A DNA stretch of 48,618 nucleotides, filler included, from Basidiobolus ranarum (taxonomy: Eukaryota): the NCBI GenBank assembly GCA_040143965.1. It is 2 parts of 2 records of this genome, joined end to end, with 100 filler letters (N's around TTAATTAATTAA, not from the genome) between each part and the next. Parts side by side here need not be neighbours in the genome. Positions count along the whole stretch, not along the records: positions 24,384 to 48,618 come from JASJQH010000157.1; 1 more part is not named here. One strand, given 5' to 3'. The translations under genes and the position numbers were made by a program. Positions 532 through 37,364 of this stretch are shown here, piece by piece. Each line of letters begins with the position of its first letter. Position 1 is the stretch's first letter. Under the pieces are notes generated by a model. That model searched no databases and had not been told where the DNA came from. It worked only from the letters and a program-made list of their open reading frames with translations.

Positions 532-1201
532 GCTTAATTTGAAATTCAAGATTTATTCCATATGTAGTTAACCATGTAAAATATTTACAAAAGAACACCC
601 GATTCTATATAATACCAAGCATATCTTGAATATCAATAATAAATATTACGTTTCAACCTAATCAAGAAACTTTTCCTAACGTGACGGCCTATTTATATAA
701 AATAGATCACTTTTGATTGAGAGAACAAGATCACATTTAAATCAAAAAATAGATTTTGATTAACTTAGGAAGTATTGACGAAAATATCACCAAATTATCA
801 TGAATTGTTATATTATTGCTACAAGTTCACATGTCCTGTAAGCTAAAAGATATTTCAAAAAGTCACTGCATTTCATTCCAACTCTTACAGAGGAGTTGAC
901 CTTGATTTTAACAATACCATACTTTTTTATTTCAGGCAACTATTCAAATCCATTAACCCTAACCCTTCCCAATCACGTAAGCAGGATTAATAAATTATCG
1001 TACATTTATAAATATCGGTCATGTTGAACATTGCTCAAAAACCATTCTAGCCCATCTATACTCTGTCCAAGACTTCAATCGCTATATGTGATTCCCAATA
1101 CTAATCCTCTGTACCACTTTTCCAACCATTCTCCACCAATACCGACATTAATTATCTTAAATGCTATAATATTGAAAATGTGATGTATTGAACAAAAATG
1201 A

Positions 1202-1273
1202 GGGCTCAACCGGGAATTGAACCCGGGACCTCCACGACCCGAACGAGGAATCATACGACTAGACCATTGAGCC
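1202..1273 (-). tRNA. tRNA-Pro, anticodon CGG, intronless
   Basis: Minus strand reads GGCTCAA TG GTCT AGTCGTA TGAT T CCTCG TTCGGGT CGTGG AGGTC CCGGG TTCAATT CCCGG TTGAGCC C. Perfect 7-bp acceptor stem, T-arm with TTC, anticodon loop TT-CGG-GT, and a T5 Pol III terminator at 1194-1198. Confidence 0.92.
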
Positions 1274-2335
1274 CTGGTTGCTAGATAAATACATTGAAAA
1301 TGAATATTATTCTCATGAGATCTAGTAAACTTTTATAGTTATCGAGATATAAGTGAGTATTCAATTATAATGATATACAAATCATTAAGTGATCTTATGC
1401 TTCTAAGCCGTGTTTCTGTCATATGCTTGATCATCTACCATATACCAGATCAGCGGTACCAAGATGGTAGAAACTTCTAAGGTACTCTTGTCTAGGATTT
1501 GATTGACTTTAGGTAGTGGTTTGCCGAGATAGGCCAGATGATGCTATAAAAACTCACTTTATACTATGGGCTTTCACTGAACAAGCTTTGTTGTTATCCA
1601 AGTTTAAGGTTCATTATCCATTACTGTAATTATTCAACACAACACTGGCAAATTAGACATCTCTTTGTCAATAAATACCAACAGATTACTTTGGTAAAAT
1701 TTGGATTGTCTCAAATGCAACTCTAGAAGGCAATTAATTCTATTATCACAAAAGTAAAAGCCTACTCTAAATTGTATATTTGATATAGTCCGCACCAGTA
1801 TGCTCATATCTTTGATCATATAGATTACATGAAGGACTTTGCTTAGCTGAATGAAGAGTTCTTTATGCTTTGCTTGACACAGAATATTCACTTAATAAAA
1901 AATTGAAAATTTTAAAAAAGTTTTACAAAGTGATTGGTAGCTGAGAATGATAGCTTTGTACCAAGATAACTTCAAAAAGCAAACCTATGTTCATAGCTTA
2001 TGCCAGTTACTCTGATCCTCCAACCACAGAGTGTTGGTGAGGAGCTGCATGAACTCGCTTTCAATATTACTTGTCAAATAGTTGCATTGTATTTTGGTAA
2101 TAATCATCAAACATTTCTGAGGCTCTTGAGTAACTATATACCTTGTATTCACTCATCTGATTTCAGTGCTTATACATATGTTGAGCTGATACAGAGCGAG
2201 AACTGTAGAGTATTTCAAAGGATGTATATATATATGTTACCATATACTCTGATATTTTTATGAATGTTTAATAAAACAATTTATTAAGTTGATTTGAATT
2301 ATGTCTAATATTAATGTAGACCAATAACTAACTAA

Positions 2336-21061: not shown

Positions 21062-24000
21062 ATGTCGACTGCCGATAAACGGCTCAATTCCAAAGGCCAG
21101 GTAGATGATGGACCTATCCCATTTTTCGGAAATTCTGGTGGTGATACCGATTTGTTTGGGTCTTTGGTGAGCAGTCAACCATCTACTCAACCTACTCAAC
21201 CTAATGGCTGGCAAAACCCCTCATATAATGATAAAGCCTCTATTCCTCCGCGTAGTAATTCCACCGCTCCGGTTACTCAGTCTGCAGTAAGTCAACCTTT
21301 CTCACCACAGTATCCTACACCCCAACGCCCCAAAACCACCGATCCTTCTGTTGGCCAAGGCTCTGAAAATGTCAGTTCTTTTTTTGACAATTATTCAGCT
21401 ACACAAAACGTGACTGCTGAGCCTTCTAGGCAAAGTCAAGGCTTTTTGAATTCGGCTCAAAATTCTCAGGATGCTTCTTTCTTCGATAATCCCAATTATG
21501 GTCAACAAATTCAGGGTCACGAAGTGCAAGCTCAGAGTCCTTCATCATATAATGCTTATCAGCCACAATCGTATGCAGACTCTAGTACTCAACAATATGA
21601 GGCTGGTTCTAAGGATGCTGACTGGTATACCCAAAATGGTTATCAACAAAATGCAGGGTATCAAGGTGTGGAGGGAGCCTATGCACAGCAGCCTCAATAT
21701 CAAGAAAACTATACTGGATATCAGCAAACAGCTGGACATGATTATGGTGCATACAATGAAAACTATTATGAGGGTTACGATCAACAGTTGGCTAGCCAAC
21801 AAGACCCATCGGCAGCGGGTTATTATAGTCATGGTCAGGAATATTCAGACCCTAACTATGTCGATCCAAATGCTGAATACCAGAACCAAGGATATACCGA
21901 AGGATACGGGTACGATTATACTCAAGGATATGACTATAATTCTTCAGCATACGACCCAGCTTATGCTGATTATTATCAACAACAAGGCTACGAGGGCCAG
22001 TACGCTGAAGGAGGTGAAGGGTATATTCAACCGGTAGGAGAAGCAGTAGCTGCAGTTGATTCATCTAATTCTCATTACCATCAACAATCTACATACACAC
22101 ATCCTACCCAGGTGGCAGAAAGTTCACCAAATTACCAGGGACAAGAAATGGCGGAAACCCAAAACTATACCGATCCAGGTGCCTTTTTTGAATCGTTCCC
22201 AGCAGATCAAAATCAGGCTCATTATGAGCAAGATTATTCCTTACCTGAATCTTCCAATGGTTATCTAGGAGAGGAAGCATACAGCCCGCTATCTTTCCAA
22301 GACCAAACTGTCCCGGATAGCCCTGCTGTTGCGTTGATTAATCCAAGCGAGGAGCCAGAGATTTCTAAACAGCCCAACAAAGGCGCTAATGAGATTCAGC
22401 CTCAAGGTCAGTACATATCTGATTTCACAAAGGGATCAGATGTTTCAAATACCAACGACACTCAAGAACATTCAGTTCCTGATGATGAAGTAAGTATCGT
22501 CAAAGATAACTCGGATATATTCGAGACTGCCGAAGATCCCGTAATCAAGCAAGTAGTCCATGAGGAACCCAAGGGGAATGACAAGAAACCTCCAGTTACA
22601 AAACCATTGGAGCAAGTTGATAATAGTGATCCTTTAGGGCAAACAGAGGACATCGATATCAATGACCCTTCATTGTTTGATACTGCCGCCGATATGTTGA
22701 GTAGTTTTGTCGGAGGAGCCTCATATACAAGTGATAAACCGGAGTCTCCTAAATCACATGATGACCAACGTAGTTCTTTCGAGCAAAGTCATTCCCAATC
22801 TGATAACTTAGATGATTTGGATGATTTGGTATTGGGCTCAACATCAAGCCTTCAGGACACAGGTTCACTTGAAAAGACTAAGGAATTAACATCTGAATCT
22901 CCATATGGATTTGATACCATAATCAGAGGAGAAGCTAGTCCAGATATAGTATCTTTACCGTCTGATCATGGTTCAGATCATGTGTCCATTGAGGGAAATA
23001 GTACACAGCAGACTAGCAATCAGAAAGTCGAGGCTAAATCAGATGTTATCTCCGATATTGAGTCGATAATCAAATCGCCTGAATCTTCCGTTGAACAATC
23101 ACCTCCAGCCTCCACTGAGAGTATTTCACTAAAGGAGACTGATGCTAAAGGTGACGAGCATGTTAAGAAAGAGGAGAGCGTTGAATACAATTCAGAGGCT
23201 GGTAATAACCCACTTGGCCTTAGTAATCTGGATGTTAAGAGTGATGTCTCCTTTAGTCAAGATAAGGATGAATCATCTAAGGAACTTTCTACTGGTCTTG
23301 CTCAACCAAATCATAATGCCCAATTCTTTGATGATATCGTAAGTTCTTCTGCTGAAGACCAACTCAAAGCTGTGGAATTACCATTGGATCAAGATTCCCA
23401 AAGCAATCTCAACTCTCATGAGCAAGATTCTATCAACGATGGTGTACAACTTGGTAATGACCTACACCAGTTGCCGATTGAAACTAGTTCTGACGTTTTG
23501 AAATTACCTCATGACACTCAGGATCTTACTGTTGTTAACCAGGAGAGTTCGGGAATTACAAATGATGCTGGAGATGAGGTTTTGACGGAAGCCAATTACC
23601 AAAATCAGGAAGCAAATGAATCTAAGTATCCTGAACAAGGAGAAATGGCAGAGCCTGAGGTTGAAATTGAGCAGAAGCCTATAGAAAAGGATCCTTTTGA
23701 GTTTGGTGGCGTCGTAGCAGTTGACGAGAGCGCTGCTAATGATGCGCAAGAGTCTTCCCAGAACGAAGAGATGTTCAGTCCCAATCATGATGATGTAGAA
23801 CAGTACCATGTAAATACTGATCTTAAACTTGAGAACGATGCATCTGATGCTATTCCAGAACATGCTTCGGATGCTCAGACCCATTATCATCAGAACTCTT
23901 ACGGAGTAACAGAGTATTATCAAAATAATCAAGCCAATAATCTTAAATCAGAACAGCACGAAGAAACCCCGGAAATGAATACTCAGCAAGCTTCCGAAAA

Positions 24001-24283
24001 TGGTCAGCATCTGGACTCAAATAATGACTTAGCTAAGAATCAGAGCTCATGGGAAGAAGTACACAGTTATCGCCAAGAGTATGACTTCAATGAGGTTCCT
24101 ATTGAGCATGAGGGGCAAATGACATCTCCCTCAAGAGAAGAGCCCATAAATACGGATTCAATGAATACCCAAGCCCCATGGGAAGGTACACCAGATTACT
24201 ATAACGAAGACCAGCATGGTTACAATCAAGAAAATAATACTTCTCACGATTACCAACACCACGGCTCTAGTGATATACATTAT
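21062..24283 (+). CDS. N-terminal ~1074 aa of a large intrinsically disordered Q/Y/S/D/E-rich protein, possibly the COPII scaffold Sec16; truncated by the assembly gap
   Basis: Uninterrupted 3.2-kb ORF, so almost certainly coding. Low complexity, with recurring S/A-FFD motifs, a Tyr/Gln-rich block and LDDLDDLVLG. The Sec16 identity is inferred from composition only; no folded domain is visible before the gap. Confidence 0.5.
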
Positions 24284-24383
24284 NNNNNNNNNNNNNNNNN
24301 NNNNNNNNNNNNNNNNNNNNNNNNNNNTTAATTAATTAANNNNNNNNNNNNNNNNNNNNNNNNNNNNNNNNNNNNNNNNNNNN
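24284..24383. other. Scaffold gap: 100-nt N spacer containing an artificial TTAATTAATTAA six-frame stop linker (24328-24339)
   Basis: 44 N + TTAATTAATTAA + 44 N, symmetric padding typical of an assembly/annotation linker. Confidence 0.95.
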
Positions 24384-25253
24384 AAATCGCTCTTGTGAGC
24401 AACGTCGTGTGCATTGCTTTTATCAGGCTTTTCTGTTTTTTTAACACCAGCCGGGACATCTTGATTATATTCTGTCTCGTATTCAAGCATAATATGCCGC
24501 AGCATCGGAATATAGGGGAAGCAGCAAGCTGTACAGGTGTGACAGGCTTTGGTACTACAATTTGTAGAAGTTCATCACAAACTGCTTCAACAAGCTCCCT
24601 GTGCCCTGCGGATAAGGTATTTTTTTGTTCTGACCAACTATATTCAAGTCCACAAACTTTTTTGTAGCTGTTTCAACACATTCTGGCGAAAGACATTGAC
24701 TGTAGCCATTCACCAGTGAAGCAGTATATAATACATCATGTCCATTACTAAAACTCTCCCAACAGGCCAACAAGTCCTCAGGGGTTGCTTACTTGTTCGT
24801 GTTGGTTTTGCCGATAATGAGTTGGCTTACACTATACCAAAAGTTCTGCGTGAAGACCTTTTTGCTTATTGGTGACGATGCATTCTAGGTTATGCAATAA
24901 TTGACAAATAGTCGAGAGCTAAACATATTGTTCTTGACTTGGCTTGATATTCTTTCAAATTTTGAGGTCAAGACATCTTTATACTCTGACCATAAGATTG
25001 ATTGTAACTTTCTCTTTCTTGTCACAGATATAAAGTCTCCAACCAAGGAAGCCACTTGCTCTTCTTTAGGAATGCTCTTATTTGGACAAAGTGAAGACCT
25101 TGCGCTTGAGTGACCTAGGCCATGACAACTTTTGCATCTGACTTCAGTAAGTGTGTTTGAGTTATCACCAGTACGTGAACTGTTTGTTCTTGCAGTCTTT
25201 TTCATTCTCTTTTCACTTGCTTTTTCTGATTCACTCATACCTTTTCTTTTCAT
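24384..25253 (-). pseudogene. Fanzor1 (eukaryotic TnpB-like RNA-guided nuclease) pseudogene, N-terminal zinc-knuckle/WED/REC part; RuvC half not visible
   Basis: Reading through two in-frame stops (TAG 24885-24887, TAA 24789-24791): CKSCHGLGHSSARSSLCP...FISVTRKRKLQSILWSEYKDVLTSKFERISSQVKNNMFSSRLFVNYCIT*NASSPISKKVFTQNFWYSVSQLIIGK...*...LLACWESF...GYSQCLSPECVETAT. After frameshifts it continues VEAVCDELLQIVVPKPVTPVQLAASP / YIPMLRHIMLEYE. The motif order (CxxC-H-C knuckle, LFVNY, FTQxFWYSxxQL, YSQCL, xxSPxxYIPML) matches Mucorales-type Fanzor1 proteins as I remember them. Confidence 0.72.
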
Positions 25254-25942
25254 GCTAACTGAGAGTTACATTTGTTGAAATTAGCATTGCCTAAACACCT
25301 ATATAGTCATATATAGCTTAGTATTTAGTTATTCCATATTGAACTAAGATGTCACCCACTATTCTCAAGAGGAATTTACTTGGAAGTTCTCAGATATATA
25401 GATTTTTTCCACCAAACCACCAATTTCTCCAGTTCTCCAAGCCACTTCCAATAGGCTTCCTAAATACTTCAACAAATACAGCATGACTGATATACAAACA
25501 TAAAAACTTACCCTCATACTTAGCATTCATTTTAAGATGGATTGATTGTAATATTGTATCTATTTTCTCTTTAATCATGTTGCTGAAAGATAGAATGTAG
25601 TGAGGCATACAGAGTGAATATAAACAAGAAGAAAGATAACGTTGTCAATATATTTATATGAGTACTATTTTGTAATATCCTGTGAATCTAATAATAGAAA
25701 AGTTCTGTTGACTCATTGAAAAGCATACACACATTCTTACTATCATATGCATTGAAGTATCTACCCAAGGGCAAAAGTAAGTACCTCACGCGACTATACC
25801 ACAGTGTTATACATATCAACTTTCTTTGAATAGCATAAAAAAAATTTACTACTTTAACATATACACTAACATAATGATGAACATCTGTCATCTTTTTTCT
25901 GCTCATACCCACTTTATGCCATCAATTTTGTAAGCGCACGTA
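24384..25942 (-). mobile_element. Probable degenerate Tc1/mariner-type DNA transposon carrying the Fanzor gene; candidate terminus at 25940 with TA target site 25941-25942
   Basis: Minus strand reads TA|CGTGCGCTTACAAAATTGATGGC, resembling the TA|CAGT...CAAAA pattern of Tc1-family termini. The partner TIR cannot be seen and would lie in or beyond the gap. Confidence 0.4.
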
Positions 25943-27905
25943 AGTTGAAAGGAGTGTTATTCCTATTCTTGTAATCTGTCATCTCATATTATTTTTAAAG
26001 GTAAAGCACCATCTACTTGTCCTAAAAAAGTAAGCAGAGTGTCTAACTTTAATTCTCAGATCGTCTCTTTTTAGAGTAAAATACTGTATTGCAAACGATA
26101 GGCGCGAAACCAGAAAGTCAGACTCCAATTATGACTTGCCCACTTATTGGCTGATTACAGATCGCGAGAATAATCCAGCGGATGCTCAATAAACTGATCT
26201 CAGCTGCTCACAAATATGGTTTCCTGGGAAAACGACTGGGCCCTCATTGGTGTGGATCATGATGTATGGAAGTCAAGAACCTTATCGATGATTTCATATC
26301 AACCGATATGAATGGAATTAGATTTCATACCTGATTCTGGTTCCCGACGATGTTTGAATCGAAATAACACTATAGCCTGCTAGCTCTATCGTCGATACCA
26401 ATATAGCAAAAACCAGTAAGGCGATCAAGTAGGTGTGAAGAGCAACGCTTGTAAATTTATCTGCGGATGTCGGAAATATAAACTGGATTTTACTTCAACA
26501 ATTGAGGACGCAAAGCAGGATGCATGCCCTAGTTGGCTCTCACATAGTCTAGGTATTCTATCATCAACGCATCTGCAAACCATGACTTGTCCCTTGCGCG
26601 TAACATATCCTTCGGAATACATACCCGATTGGTGATACTTTGAGAGGCTTCTCTTCTTCCCTAGAGTCTTGACCGTTCGTCCTTCGAGAGAAAACCTCGA
26701 CTTGAATTTGAAACTGGACTACGCAGGATCGGTCAATGCATCTGCTTCGTAGTTCGCGCCTAGATGGTGTTTTGGACGGCTCTAAGGACTATAGAAATAG
26801 GAGCTAGTAAATATAAACTAGACCTGAGAGAAGGTTGCTAAGATGGCTCATTTGCATTCCAGGATTGTTTATCCGGTGACTACCATCTTCCACGACACTA
26901 GCCCCTCAATCATCTCATGGCCACAGAAAAGCATGAACAAGTTTACCGATGAGTTCATCATTTTGCTCGAATATGCCTATCAAGTCAATTAGACATTATC
27001 TCCATTGTTTCCTCATAAAGAAGGTATTTCTGTACCATTACCTAATCAAGTAATAGTTTAGGTCATTCTCCTGGGCTATTTTCCCTCCAACGTGTAAACA
27101 TTGATGCATGGCAATTTGCTCATTAAAAAACAAGCCTAAGGTTGAATGAATAGGTGTTTAAGGAAGCCGCATCAGAAAAGCGCATTTTTGGAGCGTGAAT
27201 TATACATTTATATATACATATCTATAGACAAATCCCACTCCAACCATATACATCTTTTCAATATGTTGCTAGCCTGTACACTAACCTCCAATCTGATCAT
27301 ACCGATTCCCGAGAACGATACACAGTCGGAAGATCTCCTCATTGCCAAGCCACACCATTGACATTGTTACCTAATCACCCCATGCGGCTTGTCATTTATG
27401 GGAGAATGATGAAACAGCTGTTGTCGGTAAAATAGATACAGTTCTCTTCTGGGGAATAAAACCAGAAACGCGGATATCCCACCTTATTTTGAAAGCAGAA
27501 GTGTAACTATTTTTATCGGTAGTGGTTGATTCCATGCCATGACGGCAGCCGGGCTTTCCTTTCCGTCAACAAGGAAAAACTTTCCTTTTCGATAAATTAC
27601 TTTTCAACTGCTCAAAGTATGACAAACCTAAAGTTTGCCTCCAAGTTGATTGTTACGAAGGTTAAATCCCACATTCAACCGGCAAAGTCCCTGTTGAGTA
27701 CGTTTTTAATTATAAATACAAAACTATCATTGGATTACTAAGGAATAATCTCATCAGGTACCAAGGTCAAATGGGTCGATTTCTTAGGGTTAGATTTCTT
27801 GAATAAAAGTAATACAGGATTGTCTAAATTCTCTCGAAAATATAAAACCGGGGCATCTTCCAAAGTTTCCTGGATACTTTGAATCGAATATTTTGTGTTG
27901 ACTAT

Positions 27906-28844
27906 ATGGAACCGCAAACAAGTAATCCCACTAATAAAAGACAGTGGACTTTGCCTTCTTTGGTTGGTCTTCCAGTCACTTCCGCTCCTTCCAGCAATAA
28001 TATAGGCTTATCTCTTCAATTTCAGGCTAGCAACGCATTTCCGGATATTGGAAGGTCATTGACACAAAGAACGTACTCTTACTGCATTGTGCCGGAAGGT
28101 TATTGTTCAATATTGGTACCACAGGCTCATTGTAAGAATATGCATCACTTTCTCCTTAACAAACACAACGATAGTACTGTTAAAGCATCCACGTCATCCT
28201 CTTCTACGGAAACCAAGAAACCGGTGACTACACCAGAGAAACGACCACCTCGGCCTTTAAATCCATTTTTGCTGTTTCGTAGAGATAAACAAGCTGAGAT
28301 ATTTAACAAGTATCAGGGTATTTCCAATTCCCAAGTCTCCCAAATACTAGGCCGTATGTGGAAAAGTGCGTCCAATGAAGAGAAGGAAAAGTATCAAAGC
28401 ATGGCTGAAGAATCTCGAAAACTGCATAAGCAAAAATATCCCAATTATAAATATTACGCGGACAATTCCAAACAGAAAAATAAGAAACCAGAGATCGTCA
28501 ATCAGCAACCTCTATCTATTCATGCTAATAGTAGTAAGAACTCTTGCCATTTTCTTCAAACTCAAGCTAGCGAGGATTACATGACTGAAAAGAATCCATT
28601 AGATATGAATACTTGGTTTACATTTGAGCCTCAGATGGATCTGTATCTCGACAATAATCATAGCTCTACTCTTTTACAATCAATAGCTCACTCTGTAACC
28701 GCTCCTAACGATGAACCTACACCATTTTACGAAGATTTGTTTGCAACTGGCATAGATTCCTCAGCTTCAACTACAAACAGTGTACAGGTTCCATACTCTG
28801 ATCTAAGCCATCAAATGGAGCAATTCAATCATAATTATGAATAA
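27906..28844 (+). CDS. Sequence-specific HMG-box transcription factor (MATA_HMG/SOX-TCF type), single exon
   Basis: RPPRPLNPFLLFRRDKQAEIFNKYQGISNSQVSQILGRMWKSASNEEKEKYQSMAEESRKLHKQKYPNYKY. First ATG at 27906; TATAAAA at 27841. Confidence 0.92.
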   Translation: MEPQTSNPTNKRQWTLPSLVGLPVTSAPSSNNIGLSLQFQASNAFPDIGRSLTQRTYSYCIVPEGYCSILVPQAHCKNMHHFLLNKHNDSTVKASTSSSSTETKKPVTTPEKRPPRPLNPFLLFRRDKQAEIFNKYQGISNSQVSQILGRMWKSASNEEKEKYQSMAEESRKLHKQKYPNYKYYADNSKQKNKKPEIVNQQPLSIHANSSKNSCHFLQTQASEDYMTEKNPLDMNTWFTFEPQMDLYLDNNHSSTLLQSIAHSVTAPNDEPTPFYEDLFATGIDSSASTTNSVQVPYSDLSHQMEQFNHNYE

Positions 28845-29230
28845 AAGTATATAACCATCGAGGATTTAATGTTGTTAGTAAAGTATGTTATCCTCGGACT
28901 TTTTACCGAGGGGCAGCCTAAATTACGTGACTAAGTACTCATAATTTCAGTACATTAAATATCTCGGAGTGAAATATATCTCTTTGCAGGCTTCTTTTTA
29001 GATGCGAGATTATCGTAAATGATATACCATTGAACCGGATTATATCAACCAGAATTCACAATAAATCTGAAATTTATTATGGTACTACAAGCTGAACTTA
29101 TTACCAGATGATGTGGTAACACCAAAAGAGCCTCATGAATACTAATAACTATCAACTAGGCAGAGACTAACAACTACACAATTTATAAAGTCAGGATTCT
29201 AGACCACTATGAAACTTAATCCTGTTCATT

Positions 29231-29451
29231 ATGAATAAAATTTTGAATGTGTTCGCCGGGGGTTTACTTACCTGCTTCAACATGTCTTTCACTCTTATCA
29301 ACGTGAATGCACAACAAATACAAGCTGAAACCAACCAAATCGATTCCGTTGACCCATTCAGTCTGCACAAACAGCTTGTGGACATTGAGTCCATATCTGG
29401 CAACGAAGTCAAAGTTGGCGACTCCCTCTCCTCCTATCTGGAAAGTTATGG
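29231..29451 (+). pseudogene. Truncated duplicate of the first exon of the M20 peptidase gene at 34706
   Basis: Direct nucleotide repeat of about 34686-34908. LLTCFNMSFTLINVNAQQIQAETNQIDSVDPFSLHKQLVDIESISGNEVKVGDSLSSYLESYG aligns residue for residue, then similarity ends abruptly before the SHMDT metal ligand. Confidence 0.85.
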
Positions 29452-30379
29452 ATTAACGGAGGCCTTATTTGGTCCATGTCACTACTCGTTCGCAAACTCA
29501 ACATCAGATCCTAACGCAAATTGTTATCGTGGTAAACAACGAGCGATGAAATTCTTAATGAAACAGTGGAAAGTTGTTTAGTCATTTGTGTAAGGCGGGT
29601 TATACTGTTATCCCAAAGTAGAAATTTTGCATTATTTAATTCGATGTCGATTACAAGCTATTACTTGCTATGTGACTGGCTTTGTGATACGGATTCGTAT
29701 GCCACATTTTTAGATAATGAATCTGCTACTATTATGTATCATCTATGTGCAAAGTCGAAAGCTCAGTATGCCTCCTATGTAGAAAGCGTGAGCTTCAGAT
29801 AAACCTGATATTGGAGTTGACTATACCCCCAACAATATCTTGAATCTACGCTTAAGTTTAGCAATATAACTAGGGAGTAGGACTCTTCAAACCAAGACTA
29901 TGGACGATACTTCTTATTCATGGAGATTAAATAATAATCAGATTGTGGTTGGGGGCTAGGGGTAAGTGATGAATGCGAAGCCAAAAATTGGGCTTGATTT
30001 CCTCAGGGAGCTCTAATTCCAAAGCAGCTACAGTGACGAATTGACCAATAATGACAGATGAGCTGTGCCACTTATATTGTGTAACAAGACTGGCTTTCAT
30101 TTACTACAGGATAAGGATATTAAATTCTCCAAAGTATTCTACATCGGGGTCAAATGAAATCACAGCAATTCTTATTTCTTCAGTTTAACTCATCTATGAA
30201 CTCTATAGTAAGTTTCCAAATTCGACAGTTTCTGGCTAAACCAATTATCAAATAGAAGAATTCTCGTGCCAAGTCTTCGTCAAATGATCAAGAGCCCCCG
30301 CAACAACCGTGTGACGCGAGGACTTGATTGTTTAATGTATCAAGATTGTATTGACATCTATCTTCATGGTCAGAGTGTC

Positions 30380-36932: not shown

Positions 36933-37364
36933 TTAGACTCTCTTGGCAACTTGAGAGCTAATACGATCAAGATCACGTTGGCCATCAACAGTGAGTTTAC
37001 GACCGCCGGTAGCATTTTGTTCAACGATACCAAGCTTCTCAAGAGATTGAAGAGCCTTACGGTTGACGGAACCAGAGCCATCAGCGTGATGAGAAGGTCT
37101 GGAACCGCGGTTCTTACTACCACCATGGAGGCGTCTCAAGTGACCGACACCAACACTCTTGTGAAGGTAGACGTGACGGGCAATGGAGGCAGCTCTAACG
37201 TAGAACCAGTCCTGGTTGTAGGGACCTAATTCCTTGTAGGTAGCAGTTTTGGCCAAATCAACCCATTTGGGGATTTCAAGCTTACCACTACGCTTTAAAT
37301 GGGCAGCGTAAGCCTTAATGAACTCGTGAGCGTTGACGTCCTTAACGGTGATGCCGCCAGCCAT
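36933..37364 (-). CDS. RPS19: 40S ribosomal protein S19 (eS19)
   Basis: MAGGITVKDVNAHEFIKAYAAHLKRSGKLEIPKWVDLAKTATYKELGP...WFYVRAASIARHVY...GRKLTVDGQRDLDRI. 5'-UTR intron 37365-37498 (GTCAGT...TACTAAC...TAG) ends immediately before the ATG. Confidence 0.98.
   Translation of the reverse strand: MAGGITVKDVNAHEFIKAYAAHLKRSGKLEIPKWVDLAKTATYKELGPYNQDWFYVRAASIARHVYLHKSVGVGHLRRLHGGSKNRGSRPSHHADGSGSVNRKALQSLEKLGIVEQNATGGRKLTVDGQRDLDRISSQVAKRV

Follow-up and report, generated by a model that had tools for sequence, protein, structure and literature searches.

Positions 24384-25253 (minus strand) of the window, by which we mean the whole stretch of 48,618 nucleotides that was analysed, very probably hold the non-functional remnant of the N-terminal part of a transposon-type Fanzor1 gene, and we put the probability of this reading at about 0.9. 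Fanzor1 proteins are eukaryotic, TnpB-like, omegaRNA-guided DNA endonucleases that are carried by DNA transposons, and in the solved Fanzor1 structures it is the WED/REC region that holds the heteroduplex of guide RNA and target. What survives here is an N-terminal basic stretch, a CCHC zinc knuckle, and a part of the WED/REC region, which together correspond to roughly the first third to 45% of the coding sequence (Table 1).

Table 1. Features of the probable Fanzor1 remnant and of the joint beside it (positions count along the window; "." = no strand)
Feature	Position	Strand	Details
Probable Fanzor1-family pseudogene remnant, whole	24384..25253	-	about 35-340 of 732 family profile positions; cut by the contig end
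Strongly conserved block of the first frame	24663..25238	-	tblastn E 8e-59 to P0003; 155 bits against the family profile (positions 35-218)
CCHC zinc knuckle, CKSCHGLGHSSARSSLCP	25071..25142	-	residues 38-61; Pfam zf-CCHC_6, 22.5 bits (cut-off 22)
In-frame TAG, codon 123	24885..24887	-	within conserved block
In-frame TAA, codon 155	24789..24791	-	within conserved block
TAG closing the first frame, codon 233	24555..24557	-	stop in frame
Second frame, YKKVCG...VTPVQLAASP	24514..24666	-	profile 260-308; 12.2 bits, 1st of 1620 pieces
Third frame, FPYIPMLRHIMLEYETEYNQ... / FPYIPMLRHIMLEYETEY...	24425..24532	-	profile 303-340; 10.3 bits, 3rd of 1620 pieces
Artificial joint, 44 N + TTAATTAATTAA + 44 N	24284..24383	.	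joins two separate contigs

The sequence-only reading had noticed two short minus-strand ORFs (24885-25253 and 24555-24773), and these are indeed pieces of one frame of 233 codons that runs from 25253 to 24555 and opens with an ATG at 25253-25251. Both internal stops of this frame are located within ungapped conserved alignment blocks (LFVNYCIT-X-NASSP...FTQNFWYSVSQL...TNK-X-ATPEDLL, where X marks the stops), and neither can therefore be an intron. The frame was read through, with X at the stops, to give the query for the searches (P0001). When nine relatives were compared with the whole window by tblastn, each gave one significant match, all of them within 24627-25241 and in the same frame, and all their other matches in the window had E values of at least 0.18. 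The conserved block corresponds in alignment to the beginning of the Fanzor1 WED/REC region (TRKxxL, LFVNY, FTQNFWYS, and GYSQCL), and the motifs that had been named from the sequence are all present and fall on conserved columns of the family. The strong homology of the first frame ends at 24663, which corresponds to position 218 of the family profile.

The part of the gene that follows was traced with a sub-profile (residues 225-352 of P0010, a full-length relative) that was searched against the six-frame translation of the whole window, cut into 1620 overlapping pieces. Its four top matches (12.2, 12.0, 10.3, and 7.8 bits) are all on the minus strand and confined to 24385-24728; the 12.0-bit match is the same stretch as the 12.2-bit one in an overlapping piece. 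The best match elsewhere in the window among the 1620 pieces reached 6.2 bits. The two further frames obtained in this way (24666-24514, then 24532-24425) are collinear with the profile. The earlier suggestion that the gene continues after frameshifts up to the gap is thereby borne out, with modest scores of 10-12 bits that are weaker than those of the first frame. Retaining the first frame as the ancestral one down to 24555 was considered and rejected, as it scored 7.8 bits against 12.2 bits for the overlapping second frame; the ancestral frame had probably already shifted before the TAG at codon 233 (24555-24557). The second frame opens at the very base at which the first block stops, so that the profile positions between the two, about 41 of them, have been lost. 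Counted together, the damage amounts to three stops, two or more changes of frame, and the loss of about 41 codons, so that the copy is dead, as had been claimed, and the "limited decay" that had been attributed to it is not borne out. An altered genetic code was rejected as an explanation of the stops, as TAG and TAA both occur in frame and the neighbouring genes read normally.

A more benign reading would be that the gene is intact in the organism and that the apparent damage consists of errors in a poor or collapsed contig end or of unrecognised introns. All of the damage lies within 870 bases of the contig end, where some of it could be due to assembly errors, and the missing segment of about 41 positions includes the probable intron site of the family. 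This site is suggested by 10 short database proteins (P0009, P0011, P0012, P0015, P0017-P0019, and P0021-P0023 in the 26-row alignment A3) that read xV[R/S/V/N] one to two residues past one column, namely the column after P0010 F248, and that end within 34 residues; the pattern probably represents read-through of a conserved GT splice donor, which would also account for the shortness of most listed relatives (132 of 150 below 330 aa). However, the internal stops lie 400-500 bases away from the contig end and in ungapped conserved blocks, so they are not introns, the immediate opening of the second frame leaves no room for an intron, and five separate lesions would have to be accounted for. We therefore regard an intact gene as improbable.

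An exhaustive HMMER search with P0001 against 1.84 billion representative proteins retrieved 165 relatives at E <= 1e-3, with 72 at <= 1e-10 and 2 at <= 1e-30. The closest of them, P0003, is 51% identical over residues 6-198 (E 4.6e-52). A word-index search had returned no longer relatives; the exhaustive HMMER search then found some. With 132 of 150 below 330 aa (median 213 aa) and 13 of at least 400 aa among the listed relatives, most database proteins of the family are probably first-exon fragments, so the family would be under-annotated. Among the 13 long relatives, the three RuvC patterns (DPG; E[FY]xTSxxC; RDx[NG][AV]) are complete in P0010, P0013, and P0121, and P0076 has two of them. 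PF07282, the Cas12f1-like TNB (the former OrfB zinc ribbon), was above its cut-off in 3 of the 10 long relatives that were scanned (P0010, P0076, and P0121), and P0013 narrowly missed it (23.8 versus 26.3); five of the 10 were without any Pfam family, and P0115 had a sub-threshold YL1 match only. P0010 and P0013 are also matched to the window fragment by tblastn, with E values of 1e-24 to 3e-25.

In the alignment of the full-length relatives, the motifs read DPGRxxxFTA, IDEFKTSKTC..C, and RDxNASxNM, and the arrangement of D, E, zinc ribbon, and RD is the signature of TnpB and Fanzor according to the retrieved part of Bao & Jurka 2013 (PMC3627910). Searched by sequence against solved structures, P0010 alone found the Spizellomyces Fanzor1 only (E 1.8e-4). 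A profile of seven family sequences reached SpuFz1, the Fanzor1 of Spizellomyces punctatus, at E 1.4e-12, compared with about 1e-5 for TnpB (6.3e-6 to 6e-3), LaTranC, and the mimivirus Fanzor2 L79 (8.5e-6). The N-terminal profile gave no match to solved structures at E <= 10, and the P0001 sequence gave a chance-level match only. The profile search that had been proposed as a check has thus been run and leads to relatives with RuvC and TNB and to SpuFz1; the contrary outcome, in which the fragment would resemble a Gag knuckle only and its homologues would be devoid of RuvC, did not occur.

The zinc knuckle is the sole Pfam match in the fragment. Its residues C40, C43, and H48 are invariant in the 26 aligned rows, and C56 is conserved in at least 90% of them. 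It is preceded by a lysine/arginine-rich stretch, and both together form an N-terminal extension, since the alignment of P0010 with SpuFz begins at P0010 residue 99 (SpuFz residue 20) and the basic stretch and knuckle occupy approximately residues 40-80 of P0010. By the same token, what remains of the window fragment represents the beginning of the WED/REC part. No part of the RuvC triad (D...E...D) or of the TNB was detected anywhere in the 48.6 kb by tblastn with the full-length relatives, and PF07282 is absent from the fragment by Pfam; the absence of RuvC is due to the contig end, which lies ahead of the first RuvC aspartate. As RuvC is absent here and present in the full-length relatives, the window piece is regarded as the remnant of a family member and not as a functional member, and, with nothing catalytic in the window, its membership rests on the N-terminal homology.

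Structure models were built for both the full-length relative and the fragment. The AlphaFold2 model of P0010 was obtained from a 46-row alignment (pLDDT 71.3, pTM 0.63), and Foldseek returned seven matches for it at E <= 0.001, all of which are Fanzor1 chains (four SpuFz, two PpFz, and one GtFz; 2.1e-13 to 4.0e-10), followed at rank 8 by Cas12f (5.3e-2). With VIA-align, the same seven-chain picture emerged, with Z scores of 18.4-21.1 to seven Fanzor1 chains over model residues 99-683 and 5.6 for the next chain, and with 4.7 for Fanzor2 and 4.4 for TnpB. The structure prediction that had been suggested as a check therefore shows a strong match of the full-length relative to Fanzor1 chains only, and the assignment of the family to Fanzor1 rather than to Fanzor2 or TnpB is supported by both the profile E values and the fold Z scores. 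The model of the window fragment itself (P0001; 26-row alignment, pLDDT 84.7) had no Foldseek match at E <= 0.001, PpFz being second at E 1.7. The top four VIA-align matches of this model are Fanzor1 chains (Z 9.9, 8.2, 8.2, and 7.4, compared with 4.6 for the next chain; rmsd 3.1-3.4 over 114-122 residues, model residues 80-229), where Z scores below about 13 may reflect an arrangement that is common in helical models, as which the mostly helical P0001 model qualifies. The fold match of the fragment is hence supportive, not decisive.

Given the knuckle, it must be asked whether the fragment could instead derive from a retroelement Gag-type protein or another zinc-knuckle protein that is unrelated to Fanzor. 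Such an origin would agree with zf-CCHC_6 being the only Pfam match and with the nearest atlas cluster, a zf-CCHC_6 "hypothetical protein" (score 0.85, to be taken as a lead only). It is nevertheless highly improbable, as the homology extends far past the knuckle (residues 6-198) and leads to proteins that end with RuvC and TNB, the fold matches are to Fanzor1 only, and the nearby ORFs that were scanned encode no reverse transcriptase, integrase, or protease.

Among characterized systems, SpuFz1 (PDB 8gkh, 9ceu-9cez) is the solved structure closest to the family, in sequence profile and in fold alike (Z 21.1). Its residues 20-633 align with residues 99-682 of P0010, and its residues 27-458 align with residues 82-229 of the window-fragment model (Z 9.9). 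In comparison with SpuFz1, the window copy and its subfamily possess the extra basic stretch and CCHC knuckle ahead of the aligned residues, and for the N-terminal part no similarity to SpuFz was found at the sequence level; the window copy is, moreover, broken and lacks everything from RuvC-I onward. PpFz1 from Parasitella parasitica (PDB 9cf0, 9cf1) has a Mucorales host and the Fanzor1 fold (Z 18.6-18.8 with the P0010 model and 8.2 with the window-fragment model), but it was not found by the family profile at E <= 1 and thus belongs to another Fanzor1 lineage. A RuvC-insertion (FRI) domain has been described for PpFz1 in the retrieved part of PMC11423790. TnpB (ISDra2; PDB 8h1j, 8bf8) and the mimivirus Fanzor2 (PDB 9b0l) share the core of RuvC and TNB with the full-length relatives, with profile E values of 6e-3 and 8.5e-6, respectively. 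Their fold match is far weaker (Z 4.4 and 4.7), and they have neither the N-terminal knuckle nor the large REC region.

The direct relatives of the window copy are uncharacterised "Cas12f1-like TNB domain-containing proteins" of Mucorales (Mucor flavus, M. lusitanicus, Cunninghamella, and Mycotypha), which share with it the knuckle and the motifs LFVNYY, FTQNFWYS, and GYSQCL. Fanzor1 families are known from Mucorales (the MCi, ROr, and PBl elements in the retrieved part of PMC3627910), whereas the host of the window copy is Basidiobolus-like. The sequence-only reading had placed the Fanzor1 of Mucorales in mariner/Tc1-type elements. This does not agree with the retrieved part of Bao & Jurka 2013 (PMC3627910), where the Mucorales elements are given as MuDr-like or unclassified and the mariner-borne Fanzor1 come from other taxa (prefixes PGv, PUl, and HMa).

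The fragment lies at the extreme end of its contig, which is the right-hand one of the two and spans 24384-48618. Proteins encoded to the right of the joint are recorded on a contig of 24,235 bases, which is exactly the length of this part. The joint to its left contains a motif, TTAATTAATTAA, that is a stop in all six frames; it is thus an artificial joint between contigs and not a sequencing gap inside one molecule. The earlier proposal to close the gap is consequently meaningless, and the DNA left of the joint (up to 24283) need not neighbour the Fanzor1 fragment in the genome. Within the window, tblastn finds a single copy of the fragment, and no signs of a transposon (inverted repeat, target duplication, or second copy) were found there, the other end of any element being missing from it. 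The repeats in 24384-30000 are short pairs at chance level, with no inverted-repeat candidate among them. Ten other ORFs on the right-hand contig, among them two upstream of the fragment (26428-26718 and 27741-28007), yielded no transposase in Pfam. No omegaRNA was found in the window, and the 3' part of the gene lies beyond the contig end. When metagenome contigs (two scans) and viral contigs were searched with a five-row alignment (A4), no related loci were confirmed.

From what is known of Fanzor1 and TnpB, the intact ancestor would have cut DNA next to a TAM, under the guidance of an omegaRNA that its own 3' end encoded. The surviving N-terminus is basic and resembles a nuclear localization signal, and the CCHC knuckle is typical of the subfamily. 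The copy is disabled by two premature stops in conserved sequence, by the loss of about 41 codons with a change of frame, and by a further change of frame, and the remnant itself does nothing. Repetition of the element in the genome may be the reason why the assembly broke at this place.

The host appears to be a fungus nearest to Basidiobolus, that is, a zygomycete outside the Mucorales. The eS19 protein encoded on the same contig as the fragment (36936-37364, minus strand) is identical to that of Basidiobolus meristosporus at 136 of 142 positions, and two Basidiobolus proteins share 55% identity with an Obg-type GTPase encoded on the left contig (17748-18866, minus strand), for which full-coverage matches in other fungi reach at most 50%. 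In a quick tree of 43 rows, the Obg protein forms a long branch that groups with the two Basidiobolus rows (SH-aLRT 81); it is placed outside a 20-row clade that contains all Mucoromycota rows and one long-branch Taphrina row (97) and also outside a seven-row Mucorales clade (100). The guess of a zoopagomycete host that had been made from the sequence is in line with both proteins. The 55% identity of Obg on a long branch stands beside the 96% identity of eS19, which may mean either that the host is a distant relative of the Basidiobolus that have been sequenced or that its Obg gene is a diverged paralogue.

It is scarcely credible that the right-hand contig is a Mucorales contamination that says nothing about a Basidiobolus-like host, as one might suppose from every fungal-named relative being from Mucorales and from the window consisting of two concatenated contigs, since the Basidiobolus-like eS19 gene is located on the fragment's own contig and the tetranucleotide correlation across the joint (0.92-0.96) is as good as that within the two sides (0.93 and 0.95).

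Organism labels were looked up for 20 representatives of the 150 listed relatives and were available for 10 of them, eight of which are Mucorales (Mucor flavus, M. lusitanicus, M. hiemalis, Cunninghamella blakesleeana, Mycotypha africana, Spinellus fusiger, Rhizopus microsporus, and Cokeromyces recurvatus), so that among the labelled relatives every fungal name belongs to this order. P0003, the closest relative, is among the 10 that carry no label. A further search for relatives gave 14 matches, all from Mucorales. One member of the fungal family, P0017, bears the label of a Sphingobacterium sp. MAG; it stems from a 2.8-kb contig, which is most likely a misbinned eukaryotic one. Another relative, P0006, is labelled Camellia sinensis, and in this protein of 1434 aa the basic-plus-knuckle stretch was matched 26 times, in an odd tandem array.

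For the N-terminal region, a quick tree of 37 rows was calculated with no outgroup, in which the window copy is the only row known to be from outside Mucorales. The window copy pairs with P0003 (SH-aLRT 89), and both lie within a six-row clade with the Spinellus copy (SH-aLRT 97), which is in turn nested in an 18-row clade with copies from Mucor, Rhizopus, and Cokeromyces (SH-aLRT 99); the copies from Cunninghamella, Apophysomyces, and M. hiemalis branch outside of the latter. Such nesting would be expected for a horizontal transfer and equally for old paralogues. Mucor circinelloides alone harbours 10 Fanzor1 families according to the retrieved part of Bao & Jurka 2013 (PMC3627910). The window copy shares 33-42% identity with the Mucorales copies over about 160-190 residues, and hence nothing points to a recent event. 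It follows from the retrieved part of PMC10432273, where Fanzor1 is described as common in early-diverging fungi, that a Fanzor1 in such a fungus is to be expected. Based on these sequence comparisons, a horizontal transposon transfer of an undescribed knuckle-bearing Fanzor1 subfamily between Mucorales-type fungi and the Basidiobolus lineage would be a tentative and rather unlikely explanation of the window copy.

For genome editing the locus itself offers nothing, as it lacks a nuclease domain, a guide RNA, and ends that could be defined. Its interest points beyond the locus, to a knuckle-bearing Fanzor1 subfamily and to the presence of that subfamily in the Basidiobolus lineage: a Fanzor1 lineage has been present in a Basidiobolus-like genome, and in the subfamily a conserved CCHC knuckle precedes, on the N-terminal side, the part that aligns with the solved Fanzor1. 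For the knuckle, roles in nucleic-acid binding and in nuclear targeting can be guessed. Full-text literature searches found no paper that joins "Fanzor" with "zinc knuckle" and none that joins it with "Basidiobolus".

Some further genes were observed in the window. On the left contig, an ORF of more than 1070 codons that is rich in Ser, Gln, Asn, Asp, and Glu (21062-24283, plus strand) runs off the contig end into the linker. At 2.6 kb from the Fanzor1 fragment, the right-hand contig carries a gene for an HMG-box protein (27906-28841, plus strand; PF00505, E 2.7e-20). A zygomycete sex locus around this gene was considered, but the nearby ORFs that were scanned include neither a triose-phosphate transporter nor an RNA helicase as neighbour. 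Finally, a tRNA-Pro (CGG) at 1200-1274 (minus strand) is the sole RNA-family match in the window by the RNA-family and tRNA scans.
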